From Squalus acanthias (taxonomy: Eukaryota), in NCBI GenBank assembly GCA_030390025.1, contig CM059432.1, positions 23,996,001 through 24,060,000 on the forward strand: a stretch of 64,000 nucleotides of DNA, in the 5' to 3' direction. The position numbers and the translations under genes are program-made. Below are positions 10,285 to 62,722 of the stretch, piece after piece (position 1 is the first letter of the stretch; every line of letters begins with the position of its first letter). Below the pieces are notes generated by a model. It was not told where the DNA came from. It was given only the letters and a program-made list of their open reading frames with translations, and did not search any database.

Positions 10285-10435
10285 TCTGCTATGAGTACAG
10301 CTGCTTCAGTCCTCCACCTCCCTCTCCTTGACCCGCTGCTGCTTGCTGAGGCAGCTTCTCAGCCAGCAATGCTAAGAATGAGGTTCTGCAGCAACAATAA
10401 CCTCCCCTTTAAGAACTGGAAAAAGCCTATGGCAA

Positions 10436-31523: not shown

Positions 31524-31688
31524 CTTTGGTGTGTAATATTGGATGGATTGATGTATAAAGCTGGATTGTAATGTTCCTTTTGTGGTGGCTTTCATTTCAA
31601 CATTGTGGCCAAGAGGAGGCTGTGATGGTCCGTATCAGAGGGATGGTAAGGTGTGGGACTATTGGTGAATGTGGAATTGGGATTGTGT

Positions 31689-32900
31689 TCACTGGAACCG
31701 CAGTTGGATGAGTCTATCATGGACAACCCGGGCAGAAAAGGGCTGTCTGGGTTGCCTCCACCCTTCCGCTTTCTCCTCTTCCACTTCCTCCTCCTGCTCT
31801 TCTGCTTCCTCCTCCTGCTTTTCCTCCTCCTCTTCTTCCTCCTCCTCCTCCTCTTTCTCCTCCTCCACCTCCTCCTCCTCCTACTCAGCTGGTCGTCGTA
31901 TGCCTGGAGGCAAGGGCTGTGCCCTCATGATAGCGAGGTGGTGGAGCATGTAGCAGACCACAACGAATCTTGAGTACTGCAGGGCTCCTCCAGAGTGGTC
32001 CAGGCAGCAGAACTGTTGCTTCAACACCCCAATGGTCTGCTCTATGATGTTTTGTGTGGGAGCATGGCTCCCGTTGTATGCATGCTGGCCACATGTGGTT
32101 GGGTTGCGGAGCGGAGTCATGAACCAGGTGGTTAAGGGATAGCCCTTGTCACCCAGCAGCCAACTTCTGGTTTGACATGGTGGCTCAAAGACTGAGGGAA
32201 CAGCGGATTGGCGCATAATAAAACCATCATGACAGCTGGCAGATTACCGGACATTCACCATCATGAGCATGGTCACACACCAACTGTATATGCAGCAAGT
32301 GGAAACCTTTGCGGTTGCAGTACATCTCAGCATTTAGATGTGGTGCCCGCAAAGCCACATGCCTGCAGTCAATGGCGCCCTGCACCATCGGGAAGCCTGC
32401 TATCCTGGCAAAGTCATGTGCACACTCTGCCTGCTCTCACTGTTCAGCTAGAAGACAATGAAGTTCCCTCTCTTAGCATAAAGAGCGTCTGTCACCTCTC
32501 TTATGCAGCAGTGGACGGCAAACTGGGAGATGTTATAGATATCACCTGCTCCAGCCTGGAAGGATCCCGACGCGAAGAAATTCAGGGCCAGTCACCTTCA
32601 CAGCCACTGGCAGTGCTATCCTTGCCCTGGCCTGAGGCTGCAGGTCTGGTTGCAAGAGGTGGCAGAGTTCTGTGAGTACTTCCTTCGTAAAGCGCAGACA
32701 CCTTACCCACTGCTCCTGGCTCAGGCTGAGGTAAGAGAATTGCTCTTGGATGATCCTAGGTGGGTAAGACCATCTGCTGAGAGGCCTTCTCCCCCTCCTC
32801 CTCCTCCTCCCTCTGCGAGCAGCTTGTCCTCTTCTTCACTGCCACTGCTCCATCTCCCTGTCATGTGCAGGCCAAGGGGGATGACAACTACAGCACCCAT
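31689..32900 (-). pseudogene. Harbinger DDE transposase
   Basis: WLLGDKGYPL...HAPTQNIIEQTIGVLKQQFCCLD motifs. The poly-Glu tail corresponds to the (cct)n tract at 31770-31882. Several frameshifts. Confidence 0.9.
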
Positions 32901-36911: not shown

Positions 36912-39097
36912 CATATACCCTGCCTATCTCAGAGTTTAACCACCTCCCCTTGACATTCAATGGCATTACCATCATTGAAACCCCCACCATCAACATCCTG
37001 GGGGTCACCTTTGACCAGAAACTTAACTGGACGAGCCACATAAATAGTGTGGCTCCAAGAGCAGGTCAGAGGCTGGGTATTCTGCTGCAAGTGACTCACC
37101 TCTTGACTCCTCAAAGCCTTTCCACCATCTACAAGTCACACGTCACTATTCAAAAAGGGGGGTAGGGAAAAAGCAGGTAATTACAGACCTGTAAGCCTTA
37201 CATCAGTTGTGGGCAAAATGCTGGAGTCCATCATTAAGGATGAAATAGCGGAGCACTTAGCAAATGGGGACAGGATAGGACAGAGTCAACATGGATTTAC
37301 AAAGGGTAAATCGTGCTTGACTAATCTATTGGAATTTTTTGAGGGAGTAACTGGTAAAATAGATGGTGGAGAGCCAGTAGATGTGGTGTACCTGGACTTC
37401 CAAAAGGCCTTCGACAAGGTCCCACATAAAAGATTAGCATGGAAAATTGAAGCTCATGGGATAAAGGGGAAAGTATTGACGTGGATAGAGAACTGGCTGT
37501 CAGATAGAAAACAGAGAGTTGGAATAAACGGCTCATTTTCTGAATGGCAGGCAGTAACAAGTGGGGTACCACAGGGATCTGTCCTGGGTCCCCAGCTGTT
37601 CACAATTTATATTAATGACCTGGATCAGGGAGTCGGATGCAGCATTTCCAAATTTGCAGACGACACTAAACTAGGAGGGGGGGTGGGCTCAGAGGAGGAG
37701 ACCAGGAAGCTCCAGAGCGATTTGGACAGACTGGGTGATTGGGCGGATAAATGGCAGATGCACTATAATGTGGACAAGTGCGAAGTTATCCACCTTGGGT
37801 GCAGGAACGGGAGGGCAAATTATTATTTAAATGGCAATAAATTGGGAGAGGGGGAAGTACAGAGAGACCTGGGTGTTCTTGTACACCAGTCACTGAAGGC
37901 GAGCATGCAGGTGCAACAGGCGGTCAAGAAGGCAAACGGTATGCTGGCCTTCATAGCAAAAGGGTTGGAATACAGGAACAGGGATACCTTGCTGCAGCTG
38001 TACAGGGCACTGGTGAGACCACACCTCGAGTACTGTGTACAGTTTTGGTCGCCTCATCTGAGGAAAGATGTTCTTGCCATGGAGGGGGTGCAGCGGCGAT
38101 TCACCAGGCTGATACCAGGAATGGCGGGATTGACCTATGAGGAGAGACTATGTAGTTTAGGGATGTACACACTGGAGTTTAGAAGATTGAGAGGGGACCT
38201 CATAGAAGTGTATAAAATTCTGACAGGTCTAGACAGACTAGATGCAGAAGGAATGTTTCCCTTGGCGGGTGAGAACAGAACTAGAGGACATAATTTAAGG
38301 ATAAGGGCTAAACCATTTAGGACAGAAATGAGGGGGAATTTCTTCACTCAGAGGGTGGTGAACCTGTGGAACTCATTGCCACAGAGGGCAGTGTACGCCA
38401 GCTCATTAAATATATTTAAGAGGGAATTAGATATATTTCTACAGGCAAAAGGGGTTAAGGGTTACGGAGAGAAGGCGGGGACGGGATACTGAATTGGAGG
38501 ATCAGCCATGATCTCATTAAATGGCGGAGCAGGCTCGAAGGGCCGGATGGCCTACTCCTGCTCCTATCTTCTATGTGTCTATGTATGAGTGTTCTCTTCA
38601 CTTGCCTGGATGGGTGCAGCTCCAAGAACACTCAAGAAGCTCACCACCAGCAGGACAAAGCAACCCACTTGATTTGCACCCCATCCACCACCTTAAACAT
38701 TCACTTCCTCCACCACCAGCGTACCGTGGCTGCAGTGTGTACCATCTACAAGATGCACTGCAGCAACTTGCCAAGGCTTCTTCGACAGCACCTCCCAAAC
38801 CCATGACCTCTGCCACCTAGAAGGACAAGGGCAGCAGACACATGGGAACACCACCTCCTCCAAGTTCCCTTCCAAGTCACGCACCATACTAACTTGGAAA
38901 TACATCGCCATGCCTTCATCGTCATTGGGTCAAAATCCTGGAACTCCCTACCTTACAGCACTGTGGGAGTACCTTCACCAGACTGCAGCAGTTCAAGAAG
39001 GTGGCTCACCACCACCTTCCGAAGGGCAATTAGAGATGGGCAATAAATGCTGACCTTGCCAGCGGCGCCCACATCCCGTGAATGAATTAAAAAAAAG
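36912..39097 (+). mobile_element. CR1/L2-group LINE 3' part, split by a young CR1
   Basis: INILGVTFDQKLNWTSHI motif; tail ggcaataaatgctg...aatgaattaaaaaaaa. Confidence 0.8.
37144..38587 (+). mobile_element. Young 5'-truncated CR1 with open RT frame (37209-38492)
   Basis: Uninterrupted 427-aa RT ORF differing at two visible residues from the copy at 50086-51807. Confidence 0.95.
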
Positions 39098-39378: not shown

Positions 39379-40976
39379 TGTAAAGTTTCGCAATTATCGC
39401 GATTCAAAATAACACAAGAGAAGCAGATTCGTTTGATCAGTTTTATTAAACGAAATGCTGTCCTGATAATAAAGGACACAGAAGCCTGTAAAATGGCCAC
39501 CGAGCATCGTGGCAGAAGCTTCCAGAGACACAGTGGGCAGACAAAATGGCGTTGAATATACATTTAGTATAAGATTGGATCATACTTGGTAAACACTGAT
39601 AAAGACAGGATGCAACCCGTTTGCATTTGGAACAATAGCAAAGATATAAGTGCTGGAATCGTTTTCCTCGGCACAGAAAGGATCATTGTACTGGGCAATC
39701 AAAGGCCCATCCAGACACATCAATACACAAATACCCCCCCCCGGCTCTACAATGAGAGAGACATTGACGGGTGATTAAGTCAGTATTTGGGGGCCCCCAA
39801 AACCAGTCAGGGAGACGATTCATACACATCCTGGCTGGGTCAACAATGGGGAAAACATTAACGGATAGTTGGCCAGTTTCAGGTGCTACCGAAACCCGTT
39901 AAAGAAGACAACCGCCCCATGCTGGGAGTTTTGTGCGCCAATATTACACAAAGGACAAACATTAAGATTTGAGCGGGAGATAAGGAGGACACATCACTAT
40001 AACTATAGAGAACAAATGTCCATCGCTCTCTTATTCGCTTGCCTCTTCATGAACTCGTTTCACTTGTGGGCTCTTGATTTTCTCTCTGGACTTTGCTGAC
40101 TCTTGACTCTTAGCCGTACTGGTCGGTTATTCAAGTGTTGGGTGGAGCTCAATCGGAACGAGCCGCCCCGACAAGGGCAAGTAACAGGGTGCACCATCCC
40201 GAGTGTCGGTAAACGGTGTCTGGACCCGGACCCGAAGAGACGAGACGAGACGAGAAGAAGAGGAGAAGAATCCATCTGCCGCCACGGTCAGTAAACCCCG
40301 ACCGCGCCCGAAAATATAAATAAAGAACTTTTCTTTGAAGTCTACCGACAACCTGTATCGAGCACAGGAAGACTCTTCTTTGAACTGTGTCCGAGGTCCG
40401 TCGAGTTCTTCATGACAACAGGGAGTCTGGCCTGCTTTTCGCAGCAGCGAAAGTAAACAAGTGGGGTGCAGAGACCCTTCCAAACACGTGACAGTCAGGC
40501 ACTGCAGCGAAACGAGCCGAGTGCCTCACGTTAAAATCTCCGAAATTGAACGAGTGGTGAGCATGATTTCCGATCCTACAAATCCAGACGTAGTGTAGGT
40601 ATTATTAAGGGAGGGTGTTTTAATAAGGTTAAGATATAATGTGTTCCCCTTTCTACGATGTGCCGTGTGTTCTCCATTTCCACAGACCAAGCTTTATGAA
40701 TGTATGTATACTTGTACTATCGTTGATTTGCGCCTATGACATGTATTTCATGATTTTAGATGCCATGCAATAAAGATTTCCATTTTGCACTATTCAACCG
40801 GGTCTATTTGAGTTTTCTCTGCATTACTGCTCCCTGCACCTAAGTCCAGGCGAGTGGGTCGAACCACTCACAGGTGCTTATTGCAAAAAGGCTGGCCGGA
40901 GACCAGAGCAAGCAATAGTATTAGGCAACGAAGGCCTAACCTCGCACCAGCACCGTCTGAGACACGCCCCCTTACA
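39379..40976 (+). mobile_element. Solo LTR of a sister family of the provirus
   Basis: TGTAAAG...CCTTACA, 1598 bp, 4-bp TSD agtg on both sides. Colinear but diverged relative to the reverse complement of 41440-43039. AATAAA at 40769. Confidence 0.9.
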
Positions 40977-41004: not shown

Positions 41005-41058
41005 AGGTTGATACCTTGGCTCTATAATATATATATTATAGAGCCAAGGTATCAACCT
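41005..41058. repeat. Perfect 54-bp palindrome
   Basis: aggttgataccttggctctataatata|tatattatagagccaaggtatcaacct. Confidence 0.95.
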
Positions 41059-41439
41059 TAGCTCGGTGGTAGCACACATTCCTCTGAGCACATAATCTTA
41101 ACTTGACACTCCACAGCAGTACTGAGGGAGTTTGCACTCTCAGAGGTGCTATCTTTCAAATGAGACAATGGGCCACAATTAGCTGTCAAAATTACGGTGA
41201 GGCTAATGGCGCTTGCAGGTATTTATGCGTAAATGGTACAGCAACTTCAGGCTCAGAGCAAATGCGCGATTAAATGTGAAAATCCAAAGTTTGTGTTCGC
41301 GTTGCAATGCACTGCCACATTCTGAAAACAGCATCTCGCTGTCTGCCTCACCACTGACATGCATTGAATGTCGTGAAGTTGCTGTATTTGCATGGTAGAT
41401 ACAAACTATACCCACCTCAGATATTTAGGGCGAGTACCT

Positions 41440-43039
41440 TGTAAGGGATTCTGACCCTGCGTGTCTCGCAGCCTGTGAGATTCACGCGGCTCTGTGCAGC
41501 CTGTATGTCAGTGCGGGTCTAGGCCTTGTTGCCTGTTCTGGTCTCCAGCCAGTCTGGGAACACTAGACACACCTGTGAGTGGTTCGAATCACTCGCCCTT
41601 ACGGTTCTAGACACTGGACTTACATGCGAGAGCAGTAATGGAGACGAAACTCATGTAGACTCGGTTGAATGGTACGAAATGGAAAATCTTTATTGCATGA
41701 TACTTAAGATTATGAAATACATGTCATAAGCACAGATTAATGACAGTACAATCTTACAAGCAGTTATATAGTCGATCTTAGGGAAACGAGGAACGAACGG
41801 CACATAGTAAATAGGAGCACACATTACAAATATCCTTAATCCTTAAACCCTCCCCTATCAATATCTATCCTAAACTAGATTCGTAGGATTTCGAGACTCA
41901 TGCTCACCACTCGTGATAACTCGGAGAAATTCCGAATAGCTGATCGGATGTTTTTCACCGCAGCACCCACGTGTCGGTCAGGAGATCTCCTGGTCCCACT
42001 TGTTTACTTGCTTCTGCTGCTCCGGCTAGCAGGCTGGAACGTCTGCTGTCATGAAGATTTGTATTGGTGGTTTTCACATTCCAGTCAATACTTAAGAAAA
42101 GAATTTTCCGGTGTCCGTTCTTTCGAAGAAGTCTTCCTGGCAAGGAAAATGTCAATTCGACCTACAGGCGCGGTCGGGGCTTACTGACTGTGGCGATAAG
42201 TATGGTCTTCGTCTCTTCCCATCTCATCTCATCTCATCTCTTCTCGGGCCTTTGGTTCCGATACCGGTTACCAATACAGGTCTTCGCGACCCGACACGAG
42301 GTAGATCCGAACGGATCACAAAGTTCAACAGTCTTTTAAAAGAGACACGAGGCAAGCAGGAACAAGACGGCGAGTCAAAAACACAGGAGCAGCCACGATG
42401 ATAAGAGAAAGATGGACGGTTTGGAGCCTGCAATTATAGTGCAAAATCTTCCGTTTCCCGCCCAACTTTAATGTCCATTCTTTTGTTTAGGGTCTGGCGC
42501 TCAAATGTCTTGTATGGGTGATCTCCGTTCTTAATGGGTTTCGGGGCTACTCGTAAATGTCTGAGTACCTGTTAATATTTCTCCCATTGTTAAATTGGTC
42601 GGTGTTCTCCCTGGGGGGGTTGTGGGGCTTCCAAGCGTTTTGTATAACTACCTGTTAACGGCTCTCTCATCGTAGAGTCGTTGGGATTTTACATATTAAT
42701 GTCTTTTGGATGGGCCCTTGATTACTCGGTACAATAGCTTTCATTTGTACCTGGGAGACCGATTTCAGTATTTATGTGTATACTGCAAACCCATAATGTC
42801 TCGTGTATTATCTTTACTGTGCTGAATCTTAATCGATCTTGCACAAATGTTTATTGGAACGCCATCTTGTCTGCCTGTTGAAAAGTCTAGAATGTTCTGT
42901 CACGAGGTGCGGCGGCCATTTTACAGGCTGCTTGTGTCCACTTTAAACCTGGCAGCATTCTGCTGAAATAAAAGCTGTTTGAACGAAACTCTGTGTTTTC
43001 TCCTTATTAATAAAATCGCGATATATTGCGAATTCTACA
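41440..43039 (-). repeat. 3' LTR (1600 bp)
   Basis: Direct repeat of 49039-49984 plus 55053-55709. Minus-strand AATAAA at 41689-41694. Confidence 0.95.
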
Positions 43040-43049
43040 GTCCCTCCTG
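43040..43049 (-). promoter_or_regulatory. Polypurine tract (short)
   Basis: Minus-strand caggagggac directly precedes the TGTAG start of the 3' LTR. Confidence 0.65.
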
Positions 43050-43489
43050 TTGATGCGAATAACTCCGCTTATCGTATCAAAAATCATAGTGGTGAGCAAT
43101 ATTATCTCGATTTCTCTCCGAATCCAGCAAATTAATCCCATAACTTTAACCTAACTAGGGTCTCTGTGTCGTCCTTATTTCCCAAGAAAATTACATTTTA
43201 TATCACCGTAGGCATTATTTGCCCTTAAACTTACACCACTTGTTTTCCTTCCCGGCGTAACCAGGCCGATGCCTCTCGTATCACCTGTATATTCATCTTT
43301 TATTCAGGGAAAGGAAAAACAAAACCCAAAACCAAACAATCATTTTTAACTGTAACATCATCACCAAAATAATCAACACCAACTCTTAAAACATGTCGAG
43401 TTCCCAACGTATTTACAATCTCTGAAAATCATGATCGAGTACAAACTTCCGCGGCGCACGTGGCGAGCGGGAGTGACGCCATTTTCCGA

Positions 43490-45816
43490 TCACACGGTGC
43501 TTTCATCGTGCACGCGCACGTAACGTTCTCGCCACTCTCCCGTGTTTTCATGCTTGGTGAGGCGCTTGTCTCTTTTACAATGTACGACCAATAGGTACAC
43601 TACAATAAACTTGGCATACGACTAAAATGTGGGAGGCTATTCTGATCCATGAAGGCACTTCAATATTAGTGAACAGATTCCACCACGGTGGAACTACTAT
43701 ATCCAGAATGTCTGTTCCTATTTCGACAGTTTTCTGTTCTAATGTGTAAAAATGTTTCTGTGACACCGCGACGGCTTTTAAAAGTTTGGTGAGGTGTTCA
43801 GGGAGAGGGGGAATGAGTTATCCGAAATGCGCGACGAATCGCTGCAAGTCGGTGAAATTCTCTTTTACTGTGAGATGAACAGTGGATGGTTCAGGGATTG
43901 GGACAATTCGCTGTTGTGCTACTTGAACTTCCGCCCTGGGTTTAAAACAGAAGCTGCTGTCACTCACCGGACACCGGCTACGGTTTCCATGCTGGTAGTG
44001 TTGCGCTGCAGTGGTAACACAATATGTTCCACCCCCGATGTATGCTACCTGCGGAGGCACATGATCTTGTGCCATTGCCTCCATGGTGCAATTCATGGAC
44101 TTGGCGCCAGTCGTTCTGAACCCGCACTGTGGTGTTAAAAAGGCATTCAAGTGCTGGGGGCACAGTATTATGTGTGCTCCCCTGCCACGACAACCAGAGA
44201 GATCTGTACCTGTCATCGTTTGCTCCCAGCGGATGACGTAAGGTGGAACCGCTGCATAGCGAATGTGGGCTCCCCCCTGAATGACACCAATGTTCTCTAC
44301 CCGATACAGCGGGGCGGGCTTTGCTGTGTCGCCCAAAACCGACATACGTAATACTATTCCCATAATAGTATGGTTTGAACGTCCGCAGTCCACGGGGACT
44401 GGGTAAGCTTCTGAAGCTAGCCTGAGCTGGCACGGACTTAATGCGTTCTGAAAAGGGTGGAGCGCCGGCAGGTGTTTGTTACTTATCGAGGACGGAACCA
44501 AACCTTGTTTTAAATCCTCCAAATTACTGCGGCCCTCGCCCAGTAACCACGCCCCGTAAAGCACGCACACCTCGTTCTGCGCAGCTTGATCGGATGCATT
44601 CCGATCTTCCCTAATCAGGGCATTTACCGTCTTTGCATGTTTCTCCAACTCTGCTATAATTTCCTTTAAATGGAGAGTCATGGCTTGGTCCTCGTGTAAA
44701 CCTGACCCTACCACTTTATTCTCATCTGTTAGAATGTCTTTTAATTGTGTCTTTAAACCATTAATCTGGGTCTGCAGCTCCACACTGTCTAGAGCGTTGA
44801 CCACAGATGTACCCGTGTTAAAAGCAGTGAACGCATCATTCACCAAACCCCTTCTTTGCCTCCCTGCTTGATTCAAAACTAACTGTGGTGCGGTGTACAA
44901 ACTTGTTTTATCAATTTCCGCGAAATCGAATTCGTAAAATTGTCTGAACATCTTGGTCAACAGGACCTGATACAACTGTTCTGTCTTTTTGGGGCACCAC
45001 TCTGGTAACCGCACCTCGGTGAGATTTAAAATCACCGAGGCCACCGCGTAATGTACCCCCTGAAATAGTATCTGGTCTGTGGGGACCAGTACCAAACCAT
45101 TCCCGGGTCCCTTACTAGTTTTAGGGCACCCTTCTTCCTCAGCTAGAACCACCGGAATCGTGGGCGGGGCTTTGCGTGGGCGCGTAATGAGCTCAGTGGC
45201 ATTTACTGGGATCGGAGAGAATGGGGCTCCGCACCCCCTGGTGCTCGCATCCCACCTCATCCCCTGTCCGTTATCCTGCCATTGATTAATGAAAAATATG
45301 GAGATGCCTTTGGGGCAAACGTACTTTGACCCCCACATACATACATAAATTCCCTCGTCCGGTTCCCACCATTTGTCCCAACAGACTTTCACTTGTCCGT
45401 TTGTCCCCGTAATTGTCCGATGGGTATTATTACCCAGTCGTTCCCACTCGACCGAAGAGTTCCTCATAGTTTTGCTCAGCTTTCGTAGCCACCACCATCG
45501 GCTCAATGGGACATTCCCACTACAAGTCAAACAAATCCGTTTGCCGACGGTGACGCTGATCCTGGGTGCGATGATCCTTACTTTGGGGCACAGTAAAGAA
45601 GTCTCTAGAATACTCCGTTGAGTTCGTTCCCAGCCATCCTGGCCACCTTCCCTTGTGGAAATAGGTGCTGGTCTCCTCTGCCTCCCGTCTTCCGGTCCCA
45701 TCCACCGCGATGGGGGCCGTGTCCCCGGAACATCCAAACACCACGACATCCTTGGTGCGGCCTCGATAGGCCAATCCACATCCGATTGCCACGAGCAATA
45801 CTAGAATTCGTTCCAT
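43490..45816 (-). pseudogene. env: Envelope glycoprotein: signal peptide, Ig-like domain, F-type class I fusion protein, TM
   Basis: Signal peptide MERILVLLVAIGCGLA from ATG 45816. Frameshift near 45586 into the 653-aa frame. Furin site RQRR (44850-44861), then GLVNDAFTAF fusion peptide, heptad repeat and Cys-rich region. In-frame TAA at 43818-43820. Second frameshift near 43610 within the TM, then KRDKR tail and TGA at 43490. Confidence 0.85.
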
Positions 45817-46104
45817 CCTTCCTTGGTTCCTGTGATCAGATAGAATGAGGTAGCCAGCCTCGCAAGAGTCTCTGGCTTTTGTGAAGGGTGAGCGGGTCCC
45901 CTGACCTCGCCTCACGTAAACTTCAACGTTCGCTGAATAAACTTCAACTAAACCTATCTTTAAAGCTCCCATCATTTTATCGTTTTCTGTTAAAAACACT
46001 TCAATCTTAACCTTATTAAAAACCTATAAACTTAACCTTGAACTATAAACTTAAAACTTAAAACTAATAACTTTACAGTGCCGCCCGTTCTCAGGGCGGC
46101 CCCT

Positions 46105-47226
46105 TTAAATTCTGAGAAGGCTGCTGCGAGCTCTTCCCGACGGTGGGAGGGCACTGACCCTTCCCTCTGATCTGCCGCAGCCTGTTGCTGCTGCGATGTG
46201 GCCGGCCTGTATCTGGGTTATCTTAACCTTAACTCTACGCCTTGGGGCAGTCTGGGGACATGACCACATCCTCCTGGGCTGGGGTTCTCTACTTGACCTA
46301 CGGGGAGTTGCTATGGGCGGGGGTTCCGTGACGGACGGACCGGGTTCCGAGACTTCCATCGGGATGACCTGGGGTTCCATCACAGTCGCTGGCTCCGCCT
46401 CCGCTGACTCCGCCTCCCTAACCTCGGGGCTTGCAGTTTGTGGCCCCGCCCTGCTTGGCCCAGCAGGCGGCCCTTCACTCGTGATCTCTGCCTCCCCCAA
46501 GGACGGGACGTTCAAAGCGGGCGGCCACATCTCTGGGAGCCACACCGGTACTCTCTGTGCTCCCATAGCGGCTGGCCCTGCCTCCCCTAGCTCCTCCCTC
46601 CTGTCTTCGGGACCTGCAGCTCGTGTGTCCACCCTGTGTGGATCTCTACCTGCAGCCCCCGTCCCCTCCATATCGTAAAAGGGACCGTTCCTGAGAAACC
46701 ACCCGTCGTCATCACTATTCTCATCTGTACTGTCCTCATCTGACCCGGGTACCCTGAATTCTTCCTCATCTAACCCCCAATTCCAGAAAAACGCTGCATG
46801 ATCGTCCGGGATGTCCCTTCCCCTGATGCAAGCTGCTATGCCTGCCTGTGTGCCTTGTGGTCCTACCTGGGGCTGTGCTTTCCCACTGGCGGGGTTTACC
46901 CCTGTAGTTTTCCCCTGCGCACCTGGCTGGTACAGTTTGCACTGGTTTGCATCCTCATACTCCCGGCTTTTGGCTACCCTGTAGGCTGCTTTTATCTCAC
47001 TAAGCTGCGCTTCTAGCCTGAGCACGTCTAACTTTCCCATTGATCGGGCGTTCTCCTCCCGCAGGGCCTGCTCTCTAAGCTGCCCTTCCAGCCCATCTAT
47101 TTTCCCTATTAAGCGGGCGTTCTCCTCCCGCAAGGCCTGCTCTTTTAACCTGGCCTCCTCACCGCAGACCCCCTCCTGTGCGTGTCTTTTAAAAGGACAC
47201 AGGTAGGCAGGCTGCGTGGGCTCTAG
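46105..47226 (-). CDS. ORF2 of the provirus: unknown coiled-coil, acidic and Pro-rich protein
   Basis: Open frame from just after the TGA at 47227-47229 to the stop at 46105. No PR, RT, RNase H or IN motifs. Start uncertain (first ATG near 47040). Confidence 0.6.
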   Translation of the reverse strand, partial: LEPTQPAYLCPFKRHAQEGVCGEEARLKEQALREENARLIGKIDGLEGQLREQALREENARSMGKLDVLRLEAQLSEIKAAYRVAKSREYEDANQCKLYQPGAQGKTTGVNPASGKAQPQVGPQGTQAGIAACIRGRDIPDDHAAFFWNWGLDEEEFRVPGSDEDSTDENSDDDGWFLRNGPFYDMEGTGAAGRDPHRVDTRAAGPEDRREELGEAGPAAMGAQRVPVWLPEMWPPALNVPSLGEAEITSEGPPAGPSRAGPQTASPEVREAESAEAEPATVMEPQVIPMEVSEPGPSVTEPPPIATPRRSSREPQPRRMWSCPQTAPRRRVKVKITQIQAGHIAAATGCGRSEGRVSALPPSGRARSSLLRI

Positions 47227-47258
47227 TCATTGGGTACTATTAGACGGTCCTGCGGCAC

Positions 47259-49034
47259 CTACCCGGTTGCGACCGCCACCTGTCCACGTGCACTCAAGAT
47301 TAGATTGCGCATGGCTCCTAACACTACTTCGATGTCGTCGGGAGGGGTGGGTGCCTTAGCTTCCTTAGCCGGGACAGGCGCCTGGGCTCGGACCGCGGGA
47401 TTTTTATCCTTGGAATCCTTCCAAGGGTTCCTGCAATGCTTGCGCCAGTGCCCTGTCTTCCCACACCCGTAACAAGCATTACCTGCCTGTGGGGCGCGAT
47501 TACCCTCCTGATGCCACTCTCTTTGATACGGGGCTGCGGGTCGTACCTCATGTACTCTTCCCTTAAGGGGACGTGTTGCCATACCCCTTATATTGCGATA
47601 TCCTAACGTGAGTCGATTCAAGACCGACTCTTCCGTAATGTTGGGGTCATTGGGATCAAACCATGCTTTTGCCTGCTCTCTGACGGCTGGTAAACTGTTG
47701 GCTATTATGCACCTAAGCCAATGAGTTAAAGCTAAGCCTTCCACATCTTCGCGCTCGGGCGCACCTAGACAGCTGCGCTCATATACTGGCCACAGCCTGT
47801 CGGCAAAAACCTTCGGGGGTTCTCCCTCCATCTGCACTGTCTGTCCCACTCTAGCAAACGGACCTTCATCGTTCGCCCCCAACACTTCCAGGACCTCATT
47901 CTTTAATTCCTCATAACTCTTGGTTCCCCTCTTGCTCTCGCCTGAGAGACACTGAAGAACCGAGCTGTCTAGTGAGAACAGCAGCATTTTTGCTGTCTCC
48001 CCATCATCGCAGCCGTTAATGGCTGCGGCTTGCTCAACTTCTCTGAAATGTACGGAAGGGTCGTCTGACTCAGTCAGCTTCCGTACGTGATTTATCATAG
48101 CTCGCAGCTGATGTGAGCTGTGAGGCAACACCAGCTGTCCGAGGAGATCCCCCGGTTCTTCCCCACCGTTTCTGCTTGGGCCCCTTTTAATACCCGTTAC
48201 TGGATACAACGGTCCCTTTCCTACTTCTTTTTCAATGGGCTCTTTCGTTTCTTCCATTGCTTCCTCCCTTACCCAGGTTTCCGAATAGCTGGGTGGCGCG
48301 GAGGGCGCAGTGGCTACTACTTCTTCTGCTTTACTTGGTGGGGATTTCTTAAACTTCTCACTTGCTAGCGGCTGGTGTGCTGACGGACTGATCAGGCACA
48401 CCATGCCGTTCGCTTTGTTTACGGCCTTCTTGAGGTGCTCTATCTCCCTTTGGCAGGCACTATGGTCGGCTCCCTCAAACTTATCCTCAAGGGCCAACTT
48501 ATATGCCGCCCTAACCCCCGTTAAGCTCTCTTCTTGAGTTCTTATCTGGGCAGCTTGGCGGTTACATCTTTCCTTTAACCTGCTCTCATTTAACTTTGCC
48601 TCAGTGACCTGGCACTCGAGGTAATCTATCCTTGTTTTATGGTGACTGGAGATTTCCTGGCGTTCTTGGTGCAACGCACTTAAATTCCTAATGAGCAACT
48701 CCCCTCCAGAGACCTTCTCATCCATTTCCTCCTCTAAATGCCTGATCCGAGCTGTTTGCGCTGTAATGACTTGGTTTGAAATCTGGACCTGCCTTTTGTA
48801 ACACATTAACCAGACTGCTTTCTCAAGTGTCTTTCTATGTTCTTTACTATCTGTCCACCTTTCGGCTGCCTCTAGTGGACTCTTATCCGCTAACAATTCA
48901 CTTATCCATTTCTTAGTTAGATTAACCTTTCCGAACACATAATCTGCTATCTTTTCCTGCATAACATTTCGTACAGTCATTCCAAAGTCTAACACACTAC
49001 CCTCTCGCTGCCAGTGTCCTGCCGCGGTCGCCAT
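47259..49034 (-). CDS. gag: Gag polyprotein (591 aa)
   Basis: N-terminal coiled coil, PSAPPSY late-domain motif (48285-48305), helical capsid-like region and CCHC knuckle CYGCGKTGHWRKHC (47433-47474). Confidence 0.9.
   Translation of the reverse strand: MATAAGHWQREGSVLDFGMTVRNVMQEKIADYVFGKVNLTKKWISELLADKSPLEAAERWTDSKEHRKTLEKAVWLMCYKRQVQISNQVITAQTARIRHLEEEMDEKVSGGELLIRNLSALHQERQEISSHHKTRIDYLECQVTEAKLNESRLKERCNRQAAQIRTQEESLTGVRAAYKLALEDKFEGADHSACQREIEHLKKAVNKANGMVCLISPSAHQPLASEKFKKSPPSKAEEVVATAPSAPPSYSETWVREEAMEETKEPIEKEVGKGPLYPVTGIKRGPSRNGGEEPGDLLGQLVLPHSSHQLRAMINHVRKLTESDDPSVHFREVEQAAAINGCDDGETAKMLLFSLDSSVLQCLSGESKRGTKSYEELKNEVLEVLGANDEGPFARVGQTVQMEGEPPKVFADRLWPVYERSCLGAPEREDVEGLALTHWLRCIIANSLPAVREQAKAWFDPNDPNITEESVLNRLTLGYRNIRGMATRPLKGRVHEVRPAAPYQREWHQEGNRAPQAGNACYGCGKTGHWRKHCRNPWKDSKDKNPAVRAQAPVPAKEAKAPTPPDDIEVVLGAMRNLILSARGQVAVATG
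49016..49033 (-). promoter_or_regulatory. Primer-binding site for tRNA-Arg(TCG)
   Basis: TGGCGACCGCGGCAGGAC, after a 5-nt spacer following the 5' LTR, is complementary to the 3' 18 nt (GTCCTGCCGCGGTCG-CCA) of vertebrate tRNA-Arg-TCG as I recall it. Confidence 0.85.
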
Positions 49035-50085
49035 TTTCTGTAAGGGATTCTGACCCTGCGTGTCTCGCAGCCTGTGAGATTCACGCGGCTCTGTGCAGCC
49101 TGTATGTCAGTGCGGGTCTAGGCCTTGTTGCCTGTTCTGGTCTCCAGCCAGTCTGGGAACACTAGACACACCTGTGAGTGGTTCGAATCACTCGCCCTTA
49201 CGGTTCTAGACACTGGACTTAGATGCGAGAGCAGTAATGGAGATGAAACTCATGTAGACTCGGTTGAATGGTACGAAATGGAAAATCTTTATTGCATGAT
49301 ACTTAAGATTATGAAATACATGTCATAAGCACAGATTAATGACAGTACAATCTTACAAGCAGTTATATAGTCGATCTTAGGGAAACGAGGAACGAACGGC
49401 ACATAGTAAATAGGAGCACACATTACAAATATCCTTAATCCTTAAACCCTCCCCTATCAATATCTATCCTAAACTAGATTCGTAGGATTTCGAGACTCAT
49501 GCTCACCACTCGTGATAACTCGGAGAAATTCCGAATAGCTGATCGGATGTTTTTCACCGCAGCACCCACGTGTCGGTCAGGAGATCTCCTGGTCCCACTT
49601 GTTTACTTGCTTCTGCTGCTCCGGCTAGCAGGCTGGAACGTCTGCTGTCATGAAGATCTGTATTGGTGGTTTTCACATTCCAGTCAATACTTAAGAAAAG
49701 AATTTTCCGGTGTCCGTTCTTTCGAAGAAGTCTTCCTGGCAAGGAAAATGTCAATTCGACCTACAGGCGTGGTCGGGGCTTACTGACCGTGGCGATAAGT
49801 ATGGTCTTCGTCTCTTCCCATCTCATCTCATCTCATCTCTTCTCGGGCCTTTGGTTCCGATACCGGTTACCAATACAGGTCTTCGCGACCCGACACGAGG
49901 TAGATCCGAACGGATCACAAAGTTCAACAGTCTTTTAAAAGAGACACGAGGCAAGCAGGAACAAGACGGCGAGTCAAAAACACATACATAGATACATAGA
50001 TACATAGAAGATAGGAGCAGGAGTAGGCCATCCGGCCCTTCGAGCCTGCTCCGCCATTTAATGAGATCATGGCTGATCCTCCAAT

Positions 50086-51810
50086 TCAGTATCCCGTCCC
50101 CGCCTTCTCTCCATAACCCTTAACCCCTTTTGCCTGTAGAAATATATCTAATTCCCTCTTAAATATATTTAATGAGCTGGCGTACACTGCCCTCTGTGGC
50201 AATGAGTTCCACAGGTTCACCACCCTCTGAGTGAAGAAATTCCCCCTCATTTCTGTCCTAAATGGTTTAGCCCTTATCCTTAAATTATGTCCTCTAGTTC
50301 TGTTCTCACCCGCCAAGGGAAACATTCCTTCTGCATCTAGTCTGTCTAGACCTGTCAGAATTTTATACACTTCTATGAGGTCCCCTCTCAATCTTCTAAA
50401 CTCCAGTGTGTACATCCCTAAACTACATAGTCTCTCCTCATAGGTCAATCCCGCCATTCCTGGTATCAGCCTGGTGAATCGCCGCTGCACCCCCTCCATG
50501 GCAAGAACATCTTTCCTCAGATGAGGCGACCAAAACTGTACACAGTACTCGAGGTGTGGTCTCACCAGTGCCCTGTACAGCTGCAGCAAGGTATCCCTGT
50601 TCCTGTATTCCAACCCTTTTGCTATGAAGGCCAGCATACCGTTTGCCTTCTTGATCGCCTGTTGCACCTGCATGCTCGCCTTCAGTGACTGGTGTACAAG
50701 AACACCCAGGTCTCTCTGTACTTCCCCCTCTCCCAATTTATTGCCATTTAAATAATAATTTGCCCTCCCGTTCCTGCACCCAAGGTGGATAACTTCGCAC
50801 TTGTCCACATTATAGTGCATCTGCCATTTATCCGCCCAATCACCCAGTCTGTCCAAATCGCTCTGGAGCTTCCTGGTCTCCTCCTCTGAGCCCACCCCCC
50901 CTCCTAGTTTAGTGTCGTCTGCAAATTTGGAAATGCTGCATCCGACTCCCTGATCCAGGTCATTAATGTAAATTGTGAACAGCTGGGGACCCAGGACAGA
51001 TCCCTGTGGTACCCCACTTGTTACTGCCTGCCATTCAGAAAATGAGCCGTTTATTCCAACTCTCTGTTTTCTATCTGACAGCCAGTTCTCTATCCACGTC
51101 AATACTTTCCCCTTTATCCCATGAGCTTCAATTTTCCCTGCTAATCTTTTATGTGGGACCTTATCGAAGGCCTTTTGGAAGTCCAGGTACACCACATCTA
51201 CTGGCTCTCCCCCATCTATTTTACCAGTTACTCCCTCAAAAAATTCCAATAGATTAGTCAAGCACGATTTACCCTTTGTAAATCCATGTTGACTCTGTCC
51301 TATCCTGTCCCCATTTGCTAAGTGCTCCGCTATTTCATCCTTAATGATGGACTCCAGCATTTTGCCCACAACTGATGTAAGGCTTACAGGTCTGTAATTA
51401 CCTGCTTTTTCCCTACCCCCCTTTTTGAATAGTGGGGTAACGTTAGCTACCCTCCAATCCATGGGCACTGTTCCCGAGTCTAATGAATTCTGAAAAATCA
51501 TACTTAGTGCATCCGCTATCTCTAGGGCCACCTCCTTCAGCACCCTAGAATGCATGTTATCAGGCCCTGGGGATTTGTCCGCCTTCAATCCCTTTAGCTT
51601 CCTTAACACCATATCCTTAGAGATATTGACTTGCGTCAGTTCCTCCTTTGCAAATGTCCCTATTTTTCCCGATATCCCAGGGAGGTTTTTTGTGTCTTCC
51701 TTCGTAAAGACTGACCCAAAGTATGCATTTAGTTGGTCTGCCATTTCTTTATTTCCCGTTATATATTCCCCCGTATCTGACTGCAATGGGCCAACTTTGG
51801 TTTTCACCAG
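50086..51810 (-). CDS. CR1 ORF2 reverse transcriptase part
   Basis: PGPD, NYRPVSLTSVVGK, LDFQKAFD, GVPQGSVLGP and FADD motifs. Confidence 0.95.
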   Translation of the reverse strand: MVKTKVGPLQSDTGEYITGNKEMADQLNAYFGSVFTKEDTKNLPGISGKIGTFAKEELTQVNISKDMVLRKLKGLKADKSPGPDNMHSRVLKEVALEIADALSMIFQNSLDSGTVPMDWRVANVTPLFKKGGREKAGNYRPVSLTSVVGKMLESIIKDEIAEHLANGDRIGQSQHGFTKGKSCLTNLLEFFEGVTGKIDGGEPVDVVYLDFQKAFDKVPHKRLAGKIEAHGIKGKVLTWIENWLSDRKQRVGINGSFSEWQAVTSGVPQGSVLGPQLFTIYINDLDQGVGCSISKFADDTKLGGGVGSEEETRKLQSDLDRLGDWADKWQMHYNVDKCEVIHLGCRNGRANYYLNGNKLGEGEVQRDLGVLVHQSLKASMQVQQAIKKANGMLAFIAKGLEYRNRDTLLQLYRALVRPHLEYCVQFWSPHLRKDVLAMEGVQRRFTRLIPGMAGLTYEERLCSLGMYTLEFRRLRGDLIEVYKILTGLDRLDAEGMFPLAGENRTRGHNLRIRAKPFRTEMRGNFFTQRVVNLWNSLPQRAVYASSLNIFKRELDIFLQAKGVKGYGEKAGTGY

Positions 51811-52228
51811 GGCAGCACGGTGGCATAGTGGTTAGCACTGGTGCCTCACAGCGCCAGAGACCCGGGTTCGAATCTGACCTCGGGTGACTGTCTGTGTGGA
51901 GTTTGCACATTCTCCCCGTGTCTGCGTGGGTTTCCTCCGGGTGCTCCGGTTTCCTCCCACAGTCCAAAAATGTGCGGGTTAGGTTGATTTGGCTATGATA
52001 AATTGACCCTAAGTGTTAGGGGGGGATTAAATATGTGGGGTTATGGGGATAGGATGGGATATGTTAGGGGGAATTAAATACGTGGGGTTACGGGGGTAGG
52101 GTGGGGATTAAAGCAGGGACAGGGTACTGGATTTGGATGATCAGCCATGATCGTATTGAATGGTGGAGCAGGCTCGACGGGCCGAATGGCCTACTCCTGC
52201 TCCTGGATTCTATGTCTATGTTTCTATG
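51810..52228 (+). mobile_element. HE1-like V-SINE inserted in CR1 ORF2
   Basis: gggcagcacggtggcatagtggttagcactg...gttcgaatc head, V-domain and CR1-type tail ending ttctatg. Confidence 0.9.
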
Positions 52229-53371
52229 TCTTTTCCTCTTGATATACTTATAAAAGCTTTTGGAGTTAGTTTTTATATTTTCCGCCAGCTTGCTTTCGTA
52301 AGCTATTTTGCCCCTCTTGATTAAGCCCTTTGTCCTCCTTTGCTCTATCTTAAACTGTTCCCAATCTTCCGCTCTGGCGCTTTTTTTGGCTATTTTATAC
52401 GCCCTATCTTTGGATTTTATGCTGTTTCTAATTTCCCCTGTTATCCACGGTTGAGTCACCTTTTTAGATTTCCTTTTATGCCAGATTGGTATAAACAATT
52501 TTTGCAATTTTGTCATTCTATCTTTAAATGCTTGCCATTGTTTATCTACCTCCAGTCCTCCCAGGAACGTTGTCCAATCAGACCTACTCAGTTCCCGTCT
52601 AATAGCATCATAATTCCCCTTGTTTAAATTCAGGACCTTAGTATCTGAGTCAATTTCTTCGCTCTCCATTTCGAGTGAGAAATCGATCATGTTATGATCG
52701 CTCTGGCCCAAGGGTCCCCGTACAACAAGATTACTAATTAGTCCCTTCTCATTGCACAGTACCCAGTCCAATATAGCCTGTTCCCGAGTTGGTTCCTCGA
52801 CATATTGATCCAGATAACCATCCCTTAAACACTCAAGGAATTCCTCCTCCTCATTATTTTTACTGATTAGGCTATTCCAATCTATATGTAAGTTAAAGTC
52901 ACCTATGATGACAGCTGTGCTCTTATTGCACGCTTCTCTAATTTCCCTCGTGATGCCCTCCCCAACCTCTATTTTACTATTTGGAGGCCTATATACCACT
53001 CCTATTAATGTTTTTCGCCCCTCGCTATTTCTTAGCTCCACCCATATAGATTCTGTATTAACTGAGTTAATATCCTTCCTTTCAATTGCATTTGTCCCTT
53101 CTTTTACCAGCAATGCTACCCCTCCTCCCTTTCTTTTTTGTCGATCCTTCCTAAATACTGAATACCCCTGTATGTTAAGCTCCCAGCCCTGCTCACCCTG
53201 CAACCATGTTTCCGTAATCCCAATTAGATCATAATTATTAACCTCTATTTCCACAGCTAATTCATCTACCTTGTTCCTGATGCTTCTCGCATTAAGGTAT
53301 AAAACCCTCAGGCTTTTTTTATGCTCACATTTTTTATGAATTGGTTTGGCCCTTTGTTTTTTGTTCCTCAC
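52229..53371 (-). CDS. CR1 ORF2 APE-type endonuclease part
   Basis: LYLNARSI, GITETW, GVVYRPP, GDFN and SDHN motifs. Confidence 0.95.
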
Positions 53372-53445
53372 CCTTTTACCATTTATTTCTGTCTGCCTTT
53401 CACTTTCCTCTATTTCACTACATAGGTTTCTAGCCCCCTGCCATA

Positions 53446-54393
53446 CTAGTTTAAATGCTCCCGAACTGCTTTATCAAAAATTACCCCGAGAACATCAGTT
53501 CCATCTTTGCACAGGTGTAGACCGTCCCTTTTGTATAGGTCACACCTACCACAAAACTGGTTCCAATGCCTCAAAAATTTAAAACCCTCCCTCTTACACC
53601 ACTGCTCAAGCCACGTATTTAGCCTAACTATCCTGTTCTCTGTACTCTTACTAGCACGTGGCACTGGTAGTAATGCAGAGATTACTACCTTCGAGGTCCT
53701 ACTTTTTAGCTTGGCTCCTAACTCCCTAAATTCTACTTGTAGGACCTCTTCCCTTTTTTTAGCTACGTCGTTGGTACCAACATGTATCACGACAACTGGC
53801 TGTTCCCCCTCCCCCTCCAGAATGTTCTGCACCCGCGCCGAGACATCCTTGACCCTTGCACCAGGGAGGCAACATACCATCCTGGAGTCTCGGTCGCGAC
53901 CACAGAAACTCCTATCTATTCCCCTTACAATCGAATCCCCTATTACTATAGCCCTGCCACTCTTTTTCCCTCCCTTCTTTGCAACAGAGCCAGTCATGGT
54001 GCCATGAGCCTGGCTGCTGGTGCCTTCCCCCGATGAGTCATCCCCCCCGACAACAGCACCTAAGGCGGTGAACCTGTTGCTAAGGGAGACAACCCCAGGG
54101 GATTTCTGCACTACCTTCCTGCCCTTGCTCTGCCTTTTGGTCACCCATGTACTATCTACGCTGGCCTTAACCTGCGGTGTGACCAACTCACTAAATGTGT
54201 TATCCACAACCCTCTCAGAATCGTGGATGCTCCAAAGTGAGTCCATCCGCAGCTCAAGGGCCGTCATGCGGTCCCACATGAGCTGCAGCTGGACACACTT
54301 CCCGCATACATGGTTGTCAGGGACACAGGAAGCGTCCCTGATTTCCCACATGTTACAGGAGGAGCATGACACAGGTCCGAGCTCTACTGCCAT
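53446..54393 (-). CDS. CR1 ORF1 (zinc finger/leucine zipper plus SGNH esterase)
   Basis: CSSC...CGKC, IGDSIVR, HVGTND and DGLHL motifs; intact 315 aa. Confidence 0.95.
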   Translation of the reverse strand: MAVELGPVSCSSCNMWEIRDASCVPDNHVCGKCVQLQLMWDRMTALELRMDSLWSIHDSERVVDNTFSELVTPQVKASVDSTWVTKRQSKGRKVVQKSPGVVSLSNRFTALGAVVGGDDSSGEGTSSQAHGTMTGSVAKKGGKKSGRAIVIGDSIVRGIDRSFCGRDRDSRMVCCLPGARVKDVSARVQNILEGEGEQPVVVIHVGTNDVAKKREEVLQVEFRELGAKLKSRTSKVVISALLPVPRASKSTENRIVRLNTWLEQWCKREGFKFLRHWNQFCGRCDLYKRDGLHLCKDGTDVLGVIFDKAVREHLN

Positions 54394-54677
54394 GACTTAA
54401 CCCTTATATTACTTTTTAATTTTCTAGTTTTAGTTTATTTATTGACTTTTGTTTTCCCGAAGCTTACTTAGACCAATGTATACTGTACTCCTCTTATTCC
54501 TTTTTAAACTAACCAAATCCCACTAGTTTTAGTTTTACTTTCTAGGAAGGTTTGAGGAAAGTACTTACCAGTTAGTCTTACCTCCCTGGTCTTTCGCTGA
54601 CTTCCCGGTCTTGTGTCCCCTCCTTAAATGCTGTTCACCTGGGTGCTTCCCACCTGGTCCGCTTCCGGTCTCGTCTC

Positions 54678-55055
54678 TCCCGACACTGGCCTCTGCAAAA
54701 AAAGCCCGCGAAAGTGAGTTTAAATACTCACTGTGCTGCTGCTCTCTCCGCTCCCGACACTGGCCTCTGCAAAAAAAGCCCGCGAAAGTGAGTTTAAATA
54801 CTCACTGTGCTGCTGCTCTCTCCGCTCCCGACACTGGCCTCTGCAAAAAAAGCCCGCGAAAGTGAGTTTAAATACTCACTGTGCTGCTGCTCTCTCCGCT
54901 CCCGACACTGGCCTCTGCAAAAAAAGCCCGCGAAAGTGAGTTTAAATACTCACTGTGCTGCTGCTCTCTCCGCTCCCGACACTGGCCTCTGCAAAAAAAG
55001 CCCGCGAAAGTGAGTTTAAATACTCACTGTGCTGCTGCTCTCTCCGCTCCCGACA
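54678..55055. repeat. 74-bp tandem monomers (~5) in the CR1 5' UTR
   Basis: Identical units; ORF starts recur at 54733, 54807 and 54881. Confidence 0.95.
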
Positions 55056-57204
55056 GGAGCAGCCACGATGATAAGAGAAAGATGGACGGTTTGGAGCCTG
55101 CAATTATAGTGCAAAATCTTCCGTTTCCCGCCCAACTTTAATGTCCATTCTTTTGTTTAGGGTCTGGCGCTCAAATGTCTTGTATGGGTGATCTCCGTTC
55201 TTAATGGGTTTCGGGGCTACTCGTAAATGTCTGAGTACCTGTTAATATTTCTCCCATTGTTAAATTGGTCGGTGTTCTCCCTGGGGGGGTTGTGGGGCTT
55301 CCAAGTGTTTTGTATAACTACCTGTTAACGGCTCTCTCATCGTAGAGTCGTTGGGATTTTACATATTAATGTCTTTTGGATGGGCCCTTGATTACTCGGT
55401 ACAATAGCTTTCATTTGTACCTGGGAGACCGATTTCAGTATTTATGTGTATACTGCAAACCCATAATGTCTCGTGTATTATCTTTACTGTGCTGAATCTT
55501 AATCGATCTTGCACAAATGTTTATTGGAACGCCATCTTGTCTGCCTGTTGAAAAGTCTAGAATGTTCTGTCACGAGGTGCGGCGGCCATTTTACAGGCTG
55601 CTTGTGTCCACTTTAAACCTGGCAGCATTCTGCTGAAATAAAAGCTGTTTGAACGAAACTCTGTGTTTTCTCCTTATTAATAAAATCGCGATATATTGCG
55701 AATTCTACAACCTAGTAGGGTAAGTACCCTTTTAATGACATTATAAATGATACTTACTGCCAATCCACCTCTCTGGCATCTAAATTCATTATTACAAGTG
55801 TGGCATCTCATTCTTTCAGGTTTTGAATTTTTCAGGGAGATTTTAAAAATGTTAAATTTTAAATAATTTTTCTTTCTTACTTTTCCTTCCTGTCTCCTTT
55901 TCTCTCTCTCTCTCTTAACCTGATCTTTCTTTCTCTTTCATTAGTTCTCTTTCTGTACCTGAATTGCAATTGATTAATTTACCCTTCTCAATCCTTCTGT
56001 GGTTTATTTTCCAATCGTTAAATCTCATTGGTTGCCCTCTTCACTCAGGTCCCAGATGCCCGGTTTCCCTCGCTGCGCCGTTATCAGCTCGCACTTGCAG
56101 CAACTTTGTGTGAAAAATTGTTTTGAGCTGAAGGGTGGAGGGACAAATCTAACTTACAGCAGATGCCGTTAGATGCCCTGTTACAGCAAAATTTAGCCCA
56201 TTAAATCGAAGCTCATCTGTCTTCTCAGGTGGATGTAAAAGATTCCATGATGCTATTTGAAAATCAGCAGGGTAGTTTAAAATAGATTATCTGGTCATTT
56301 ATTTCATTGCTGTTTGTGGAATCTTGTTGTGCGTAAATTGGCATCCGTGTTTCACTACATTGGCTACACCTCAAAAGCACTTCATTGACTGTGAAGTGGT
56401 TTGAGACATTGTGAAAGGTGTTATATAAATGCCTCTAGATAAGACAAACCAATCTTGACTGATGGCAATGGCCATTTCATCTTCCTCTGCATTCTTTTTT
56501 CAATCGGTCTTTTTAGCAGAACATAAGGATCAGAGACATCTGTTGGCAAACCCAGATGGAGGTCCACAGTAAAGAGATAGCAGAGTGTTATGGTAGCTTA
56601 GATAACCATGTTCTTTCTCAGTTTTACCATTATCGCCTGGAGGTAGGTCAATTTGAGTTCAGACATAAATATTCCAGTGTTTTTGTCAGTTCAGATCAGT
56701 GCTGTATCTTCTGTAATCCAAGTAAGGCTTGCGCATTCATTCACCATTACATCATTCTAAAGTTACTTAACCTGTTGTGGTTTGTTTTCCTTTCACTGGT
56801 GCAATGTTGTTCTATTTTGTTGTTAATTTTTTTTTTGCTTTTTCTTTTCTGTGAAACTGTAATAAAGGGAGATAGCTTAACCAAAATCATACTGTGCTTT
56901 TCATAGACAAAGTCCAACCACCTCCAGTCTTCCTACAAGTCTTGACTACAGTATCATAGATGCAAAATATCAAATTGAAAGTGTTGTGAGAAATGAAGAC
57001 CTTTAGATACCGCCCCAATAGTCACAGTTACCACTCAGCATAAAGCTGGGAATTATGATACTGGACTAGCAACCCAGAGATTGTGAGATCAAGTCCTAAC
57101 ATGACAATTTGTGAAACTAAATTTAATAAATAAGATCACTTATGGGCTAGCACTAGGAAATAAATGACAATGAAAGTTGTTGGATTGTTGCAAAATCCCC
57201 CTGT

Positions 57205-62559: not shown

Positions 62560-62722
62560 CTTGGCAGGGGGATGAGCACCAGCATGTAGGAGTGGAGGGG
62601 AGGAATGGGGTGCATGGAAGAGTGCGTGTGTTGGATGGCACTGGAGGGCAAGGTAGTGCTGGTGGCGGAAGTAGTAGCAAATTAGATAGGTGCAGACTAA
62701 GAAAGACTGCGAAAAATTCAAA

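Follow-up and report, generated by a model that had tools for sequence, protein, structure and literature searches.

Among the systems closest to the locus described here, the mouse IAP 1-delta-1 elements are non-autonomous, carry an internal deletion that leaves an in-frame open reading frame (ORF) of Gag and a Pol remnant, and receive enzymes in trans from helpers; in the available portions of the reports, this Gag-Pol fusion is credited with a cis role for its own RNA (PMC6466679, PMC10924933). Cattle ERVK[2-1-LTR] D-type elements, ETn/MusD, and RecKoRV offer a second likeness, since their central segments were swapped for a piece of another retroelement while the flanks were kept, according to the accessible text of the source (PMC10924933). 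The shark epsilon-like and snakehead-retrovirus-like endogenous retroviruses (ERVs), from two lineages both present in elephant shark, join gag to pol by stop codon readthrough, as far as the excerpts of those papers go (PMC4422223, PMC13517186). The available parts of the wider literature describe such joining for fish retroviruses, in some at UGA, and give UGA-CUA as an animal-virus readthrough context and UGA-CUAG as a mammalian one. Here, a provirus of Squalus acanthias was analyzed in a stretch of 64,000 nucleotides (the window, in whose positions all coordinates are given). From its anatomy and its potential readthrough route, we consider it likely, at a probability of about 0.8, that the frame between its gag and env genes, ORF2, is the collapsed pol of a non-autonomous ERV.

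The provirus occupies 41440-55709 on the minus strand, in a setting of repeat-rich vertebrate DNA, with the order gag, ORF2, env and without pol enzymes. Its 3′ LTR (41440..43039, minus strand; 1600 bp with TG...CA ends) matches 49039..49984 (minus strand, 5 mismatches) and 55053..55709 (minus strand, 1 mismatch), which are the inner and outer parts of a 5′ LTR interrupted by a near full-length CR1-type LINE (49985..55052, minus strand) that encodes an esterase ORF1, an endonuclease, and a reverse transcriptase (RT). The LTR pair, which differs at 6 of 1600 bases, is flanked by an intact target-site duplication, ACCT (41436..41439 and 55710-55713); from this likeness and the intact duplication, the provirus is young and was mobilized recently without enzymes of its own. 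The paired TG...CA LTRs, the duplication, and a Gag with capsid fold and nucleocapsid place it among integrated LTR retroelements and ERVs. A short purine-rich tract before the 3′ LTR (43040..43051, minus strand) is polypurine tract-like in sequence and may function as one, and the primer-binding site (49016..49033, minus strand), which we take to resemble the 3′ end of tRNA-Arg, overlaps the gag start codon. A scan of the coding strand of 43040-49038 for six protease, RT, and integrase motifs returned a single match, LPQG, outside the ORF2 frame. The enzyme domains are thus absent, and pol remnants stand at both ends of the deletion, the 5′ remnant being assigned by position, as in a pol-deleted ERV.

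The gag start codon lies 5 nt past the LTR, overlapping the primer-binding site (49016-49034), and the homologues P0001, P0003, and P0007 likewise start with MAT. With the primer-binding site and gag not separated by a leader, the signals for packaging may be located in gag itself or in the LTR, and this could be why gag was kept in cis.

Several other elements surround the provirus. The CR1-type LINE (49985-55052), with its GDSL-esterase ORF1, endonuclease, and RT, contains a 74-nt tandem array at the 5′ end and has a truncated sister copy in the opposite orientation at 37144-38586 (7 differences over 1443 bases); its family was still active once the provirus had inserted. Another CR1-type element, at 61819-63788, is more diverged and retains esterase and endonuclease frames, with a 79-nt tandem array upstream. 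A solo LTR of a related family (39379-40976, 1598 bp) stands in the opposite orientation 460 bp from the provirus, is 67-75% identical to its LTRs in patches, and has its own 4-bp duplication, AGTG. Between the two lies a perfect 54-bp palindrome with an (AT)n core (41005-41058); Rfam searches gave only hairpin-type microRNA matches far under the gathering scores, including sub-threshold ones from this palindrome. Remnants of PIF/Harbinger-like DNA transposons were found at 7073-11602 and 29619-32808, with a DDE_Tnp_4 domain at 10436-11254, a Myb/SANT domain at 29619-30305, and long inverted repeats at 7641-8255 and 10986-11602.

The gag gene (47259..49034, minus strand) encodes 591 aa with an N-terminal coiled coil, a capsid, and one CCHC knuckle that is also present in Gag homologues, the nearest named relatives being proteins of the skate Rhinoraja longicauda (52% identity), which by themselves would point to a cartilaginous fish as host. 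In a structure model (mean pLDDT 58.8), a long helix toward the N-terminus (aa 68-182) was accompanied by a capsid region and the knuckle; Foldseek ranked capsids first in the PDB, none reaching E 0.001, and epsilonretrovirus Gags first in BFVD (WEHV-2, E 6e-7; WDSV, E 1e-6), at low TM-scores. The env gene (43575..45816, minus strand) begins with a signal peptide at 45816, has an RQRR cleavage site, and is broken near 45608, by a stop at 43818-43820, and near 43608. By language-model features, Env may be fusion-protein-like, which we treat as a lead only: it matched an atlas cluster at 0.93 in which 47% of members carry Fusion_gly, behind Baculo_F clusters, while a Pfam search of env for the fusion-protein domain (PF00523) gave no match and its structure model (pLDDT 33.5) was unusable. 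The surface part of env (45340-45580, minus strand) gave a weak Ig-like signal (Pfam Ig_3, E 0.32; junction adhesion molecule, E 0.053) and was beta-rich in the low-confidence model, likewise a lead only. Between ORF2 and env, a T-rich stretch (45960-46100) includes a candidate splice acceptor, TTTTTAACAG, which lies ∼170 nt upstream of the env signal peptide.

ORF2 opens directly behind TGA-CTAG (47223..47229, minus strand), a type II readthrough context that we presume to be the natural gag stop; TGACTAG is unique among the 128 TGA triplets on the coding strand of the element (41440-49984). Four Gag homologues extend 12-13 residues past the motif at which the gag of the window stops, and a similar gag-like tail is present in the window in the ORF2 frame, ending at this TGA. 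In this copy, a break near 47262 at the 3′ end of gag puts it in a different frame from ORF2, the homologues suggesting that the two would otherwise align, and contigs in all four sequencing runs compared differ in length from the window there (one contig per run, about half the summed depth). We read this as a natural gag stop at the TGA, with ORF2 in the place of pol and this copy broken at its gag end. A stem-loop 3′ of the stop was not robust (z -2.81 over 133 nt, -0.97 over 80 nt). The first 21 residues of ORF2 (47164..47226, minus strand; boundary with the following segment approximate) are presumed to be the pol start, a spacer before the lost protease, from their position and from a 20-letter loose contig end in run X16 (47195), which departs from the window after ORF2 codon 10 and continues with different codons, a hint of a copy with other sequence there, perhaps a whole pol. 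Entry into ORF2 by a -1 frameshift at T-TTA-AAA near 47190 was rejected, as two stops close the gag frame earlier. Likewise unsupported was a CUA/CUG readthrough context at the start of lokiretrovirus pol genes, since the 14 starts listed look like those chosen by an ORF finder.

ORF2 itself is a stop-to-stop frame of 373 codons (46105-47226, minus strand), the first ATG of which is codon 63 (47040), and it falls into three parts: aa 1-21, a Gag-derived coil (aa 22-93), and an integrase tail (aa 94-373). A sequence-only reading of this frame had proposed that it repeats a coiled-coil motif of Gag; all of the motifs that it quoted were located within the frame, the corresponding Gag motif lies at about 48460-48535 as it had indicated, and the EQALREENAR unit is duplicated at aa 29-38 and aa 52-61 with a 69-nt period (47151-47083 and 47082-46996, minus strand). 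The coil segment spans 46948..47163 on the minus strand, with a homologous core at aa 40-93. Although BLASTP alone gave a weak match of ORF2 to the Gag of the window (E 0.39), the likeness is above chance in shuffled coiled-coil controls: the local alignment score of 70 was reached by 0 of 1000 shuffles, and the scores of the N-terminal parts by 0 of 2000 under the plain and heptad schemes and by 2 of 2000 under local shuffling, the most stringent scheme. A profile of five Gags matched aa 40-93 at 12.8 bits and ranked ORF2 first among non-self frames (835 frames in the window, E 0.0014), with none of 1000 local shuffles and none of 1000 that preserved the heptads reaching the score, a thin margin over the best shuffle (12.2 bits); hhalign gave E 0.001, at a probability of only 22%. 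The match covers a non-heptad motif, AAY(K/R)-A...EDA, in which AAY is invariant in the five Gags.

Comparison with individual Gags gave the best score, 77, with the homologue P0002 (0 of 1000 in each of three shuffle schemes), followed by the window's own Gag (score reached by 0-1 of 1000 shuffles) and P0007 (21-26 of 1000), and P0001 showed no signal (377 of 1000). By these alignments, the coil is closest to the Gag of another family. Its origin as a DNA-level duplication of the element's own gag was rejected, as there is no DNA likeness between the two, and it therefore came from another family or was acquired long ago. P0002 has an 18-residue duplication placed similarly to that in the ORF2 coil. 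When the Gag coil (aa 60-215) was modeled as a complex with ORF2 aa 18-98, the score was 0.01 with the alignment unused, which is uninformative either way.

The remainder of ORF2 (46105..46947 including the stop, minus strand) corresponds to the last strand of an integrase SH3 domain and a low-complexity Pol C-terminal tail. An HMMER search of 1.84 billion representatives with ORF2 returned two matches, of which one, P0009, was rejected as a low-complexity repeat artefact and the other, P0008 (E 1e-13), is the one credible relative. BLASTP aligned ORF2 aa 94-373 with P0008 at E 5e-19 up to the final residues of both proteins, with a score of 229 against a maximum of 113 in 1000 local shuffles; aa 1-93 gave no match to P0008 (score 24, under the shuffle mean of 29). 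The alignment turns dense exactly at NQCK (aa 94), in the last strand of the integrase C-terminal SH3 (GPY) domain with which P0008 opens; since the match begins there, aa 94-373 can be assigned to the integrase tail. P0008 matched Pfam SH3_Tf2-1 (E 0.0022) and Integrase_p58_C (E 0.1) at aa 12-49, both below the curated cut-offs, and joined at 0.91 an atlas cluster in which 59% of members carry Integrase_p58_C; the pattern GPY...IVDK.SP...HINQ.K.Y is shared between P0008 and lokiretrovirus Pol ends in the part of that report at hand (PMC7947760). With a single homologue and domain matches under the Pfam cut-offs, an integrase origin of the tail is most likely, and the aromatic/acidic, Pro-rich, and basic blocks of ORF2 are, on this alignment, inherited from the Pol tail. 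The closing NQC, which had been paired with DHSAC of Gag, has no correspondence there; it is the start of the integrase match and, by the same alignment, the junction between the Gag piece and integrase. Word-index searches for ORF2 homologues, searches for longer proteins or a full-length Pol carrying the tail alignment (weak evidence), searches of metagenome and viral contigs for an autonomous partner or related loci, and PDB sequence searches with P0008 and env (at E 0.001) gave no matches.

In the collapsed-pol reading, recombination would have stripped pol of protease, RT, RNase H, and almost the whole of integrase, leaving in one frame ∼20 pol-start codons, ∼70 coil codons from the gag of a related family, and a 280-codon integrase tail. 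RNA from the 5′ LTR would be translated into Gag from the ATG that overlaps the primer-binding site, and in copies with an unbroken gag end a few ribosomes would pass UGA-CUAG, as they formerly would have done to make Gag-Pol. The readthrough product, Gag-spacer-coil-tail, would contain no enzyme and would presumably enter particles through its Gag part, and the element would be copied by the enzymes of a putative helper. Since gag is out of frame with ORF2 in the copy studied here, the fusion cannot form from it, and its ORF2 is probably silent.

The stretch 45500-49000 recurs in runs of 8 studies and five coded organisms (20 of the 24 listed), and 13 of the listed runs carry at least half of its words; none of them is recorded as RNA, although X8 and X13 are guessed to be, and the best-matching run may be the window's own source. 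Four of the 20 runs were compared in detail by contigs, and all 30 bins were covered in each. Both junctions of ORF2 were found in other genomes. A 252-nt contig of run X15 (47010-47261) reaches from the stop across the pol start into the coil and has one difference, and coil-tail joints at 46887-46951 occur in X8, X13, and X15, with a gap in the letters between. At these joints, the coil is matched up to the junction and the tail resumes ∼20 codons on, and they possibly represent a second coil-tail junction of independent origin. In the four runs, every contig there lacks the env stop at 43818, and length differences occur near 45608 and 43608, which makes env decay a trait of this copy or its sub-lineage.

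Signs of selection on the ORF2 frame are weak. The sequence-only reading had set the open frame against the decayed env, which is literally true and yet uninformative, since ∼2 substitutions are expected since insertion and gag is broken too; with four breaks over ∼5.1 kb of coding sequence, the probability that none falls in ORF2 is ∼0.37, and this argument for selection was discarded. Among the rows listed, ORF2 indels of known size in other copies measure 21, 39, and 186 nt, plus one of 12 nt obtained by subtraction within a total of 33 letters, all multiples of three (chance 1 in 81), in a tally that leaves out 63 rows and four joints of unknown size and in which all four indels lie in the tail. 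The coil duplicates differ more at silent than at replacement sites (pS 0.41, pN 0.15, ratio 0.37; one-sided Fisher p 0.02, 27 codons).

Whether the collapsed pol is a passenger or has a selected function is a nearly balanced question, tilted somewhat toward the passenger. In a reading of the same anatomy that is nested in the collapsed-pol explanation and that we regard as possible, though distinctly less likely, the Gag-coil-tail fusion is kept by selection for cis packaging of its own RNA in helper particles, the extra coil serving as an oligomerization or membrane handle. At both junctions, the joined pieces stay in their native frames (chance 1 in 9, by hand arithmetic), the lengths of the four indels of known size are divisible by three, the coil duplicates differ more at silent sites, the stop still has its readthrough context, and the stretch recurs across 8 studies and five coded organisms, in 20 of the 24 listed runs. 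Precedents are found in the accessible portions of reports on the IAP 1-delta-1 Gag-Pol fusion (PMC6466679, PMC10924933) and on the zebrafish Bik-1 Gag, whose N-terminal coil targets the membrane (bioRxiv 2024.03.25.586437). However, the indels are confined to the tail, which autonomous copies under Pol constraint would share, and the excess of silent differences between the coil duplicates (pN/pS 0.37) may have arisen within a donor gag (compare the 18-residue duplication of P0002). This copy, moreover, inserted recently despite its shut fusion route, and a coil placed after the nucleocapsid would be expected to face the particle interior, away from the N-terminal coils. A broader version, in which a pol-less cartilaginous-fish family kept its readthrough, swapped its enzymes for a borrowed coil and integrase tail, and was selected for outcompeting its helper, is in our judgment rather unlikely, and with it the proposal that the parent belonged to an undescribed lineage with an epsilon-like capsid, a fusion-protein-type Env, and an alphavirus-type UGA-CUAG readthrough.

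Two further readings separate the coil or the whole frame from this history. If the tail derives from pol and aa 22-93 are an unrelated coil or filler with Gag-like heptad composition, the low scores (hhalign 22%, BLASTP E 0.39, P0001 not significant) and a weak Pfam match to the unrelated coil of Rab11-FIP3 (E 0.0065) would be accounted for, but not the survival of the match in local and heptad-preserving shuffles (0 of 1000 each) or its extension over the non-heptad AAY(K/R)-A...EDA motif with AAY invariant in five Gags, and we hold such an origin to be improbable. Even less probable is the accessory protein of the sequence-only reading, a paralogue of the Gag N-terminus that might co-assemble with or modulate Gag; its gene would be an independent one, translated from a spliced mRNA or starting at the codon-63 ATG. 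The part of that proposal that stood is the homology of the coil to the Gag coiled coil (profile, hhalign), and an internal ATG is present at 47040; in addition, teleost foamy-like ERVs have ORFs between pol and env under purifying selection, in the part of the source available (PMC5210030). The separate protein did not stand: about three quarters of ORF2 is integrase tail, with aa 94-373 colinear to the last residues, there is no start before residue 63, and a Met63 start would lose most of the coil. The frame also opens directly behind a readthrough-type stop at the position of a gag-pol junction, the element has no pol besides ORF2, and no splice joint into ORF2 occurs among the joints listed (contigs only, weak evidence). 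Co-assembly with Gag would follow simply if ORF2 were made as a Gag fusion.

On the collapsed-pol reading, what looked like an orphan gene preserves the traces of two recombination events, both in frame, between families of retroviruses, and the element suggests that a retrovirus lineage with an unusual combination of features was recently active in cartilaginous fishes. Should selection act on the frame, the element would parallel IAP 1-delta-1 naturally in a distant vertebrate and would offer a case for testing how defective ERVs exploit helpers. In the literature covered (part only, with no repeat database), no title or abstract opening describes this element or lineage; further related work, available in part, includes PMC12440569, bioRxiv 2023.10.26.564294, PMC12193657, and PMC2410132.

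The lokiretroviruses resemble the element in the N-terminal coiled coil of Gag, the integrase C-terminal motif, and possibly a fusion-protein-like Env with a basic site, as described in the accessible part of the report (PMC7947760). Their Env site is of the RXKR type, and that found here reads RQRR; the Gag fold here ranks epsilonretrovirus Gags first, in an element without the RT by whose phylogeny, together with a tether domain, lokiretroviruses are recognized, and cartilaginous fishes are not among the hosts listed (PMC7947760). Their smc was rejected as an equivalent of ORF2, since in the same portion of the text it is the N-terminal part of an Smc-Gag-Pol polyprotein rather than a gene replacing pol (PMC7947760). 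The stop contexts described for the epsilon-like and snakehead-like ERVs are, in the excerpts of those papers, not UGA-CUA, and the env here may be fusion-protein-like (as a lead only). The accessory ORFs of the teleost foamy-like ERVs sit beside a complete pol, as far as that source extends, and here no complete pol is present (PMC5210030). The zebrafish BHIKHARI (Bik-1) element, among the endogenous lokiretrovirus relatives, is similarly young and lacks pol, and its Gag (∼600 aa) likewise combines a coiled coil at the N-terminus with a capsid, but in the available text it is a single long ORF with a Gly-rich end, in contrast to the CCHC knuckle, env, and pol remnant found here (bioRxiv 2024.03.25.586437). 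The ERVK[2-1-LTR] D-type elements, ETn/MusD, and RecKoRV are described, in the sections available, as without functional genes, whereas the swapped piece here is in frame on both sides. Relative to IAP 1-delta-1, as far as the available portions describe it, gag here is whole in kind, env is kept, and a foreign Gag coil fills the deletion, and the Pol remnant lies behind a readthrough stop, whereas in IAP 1-delta-1 it is fused to Gag constitutively.
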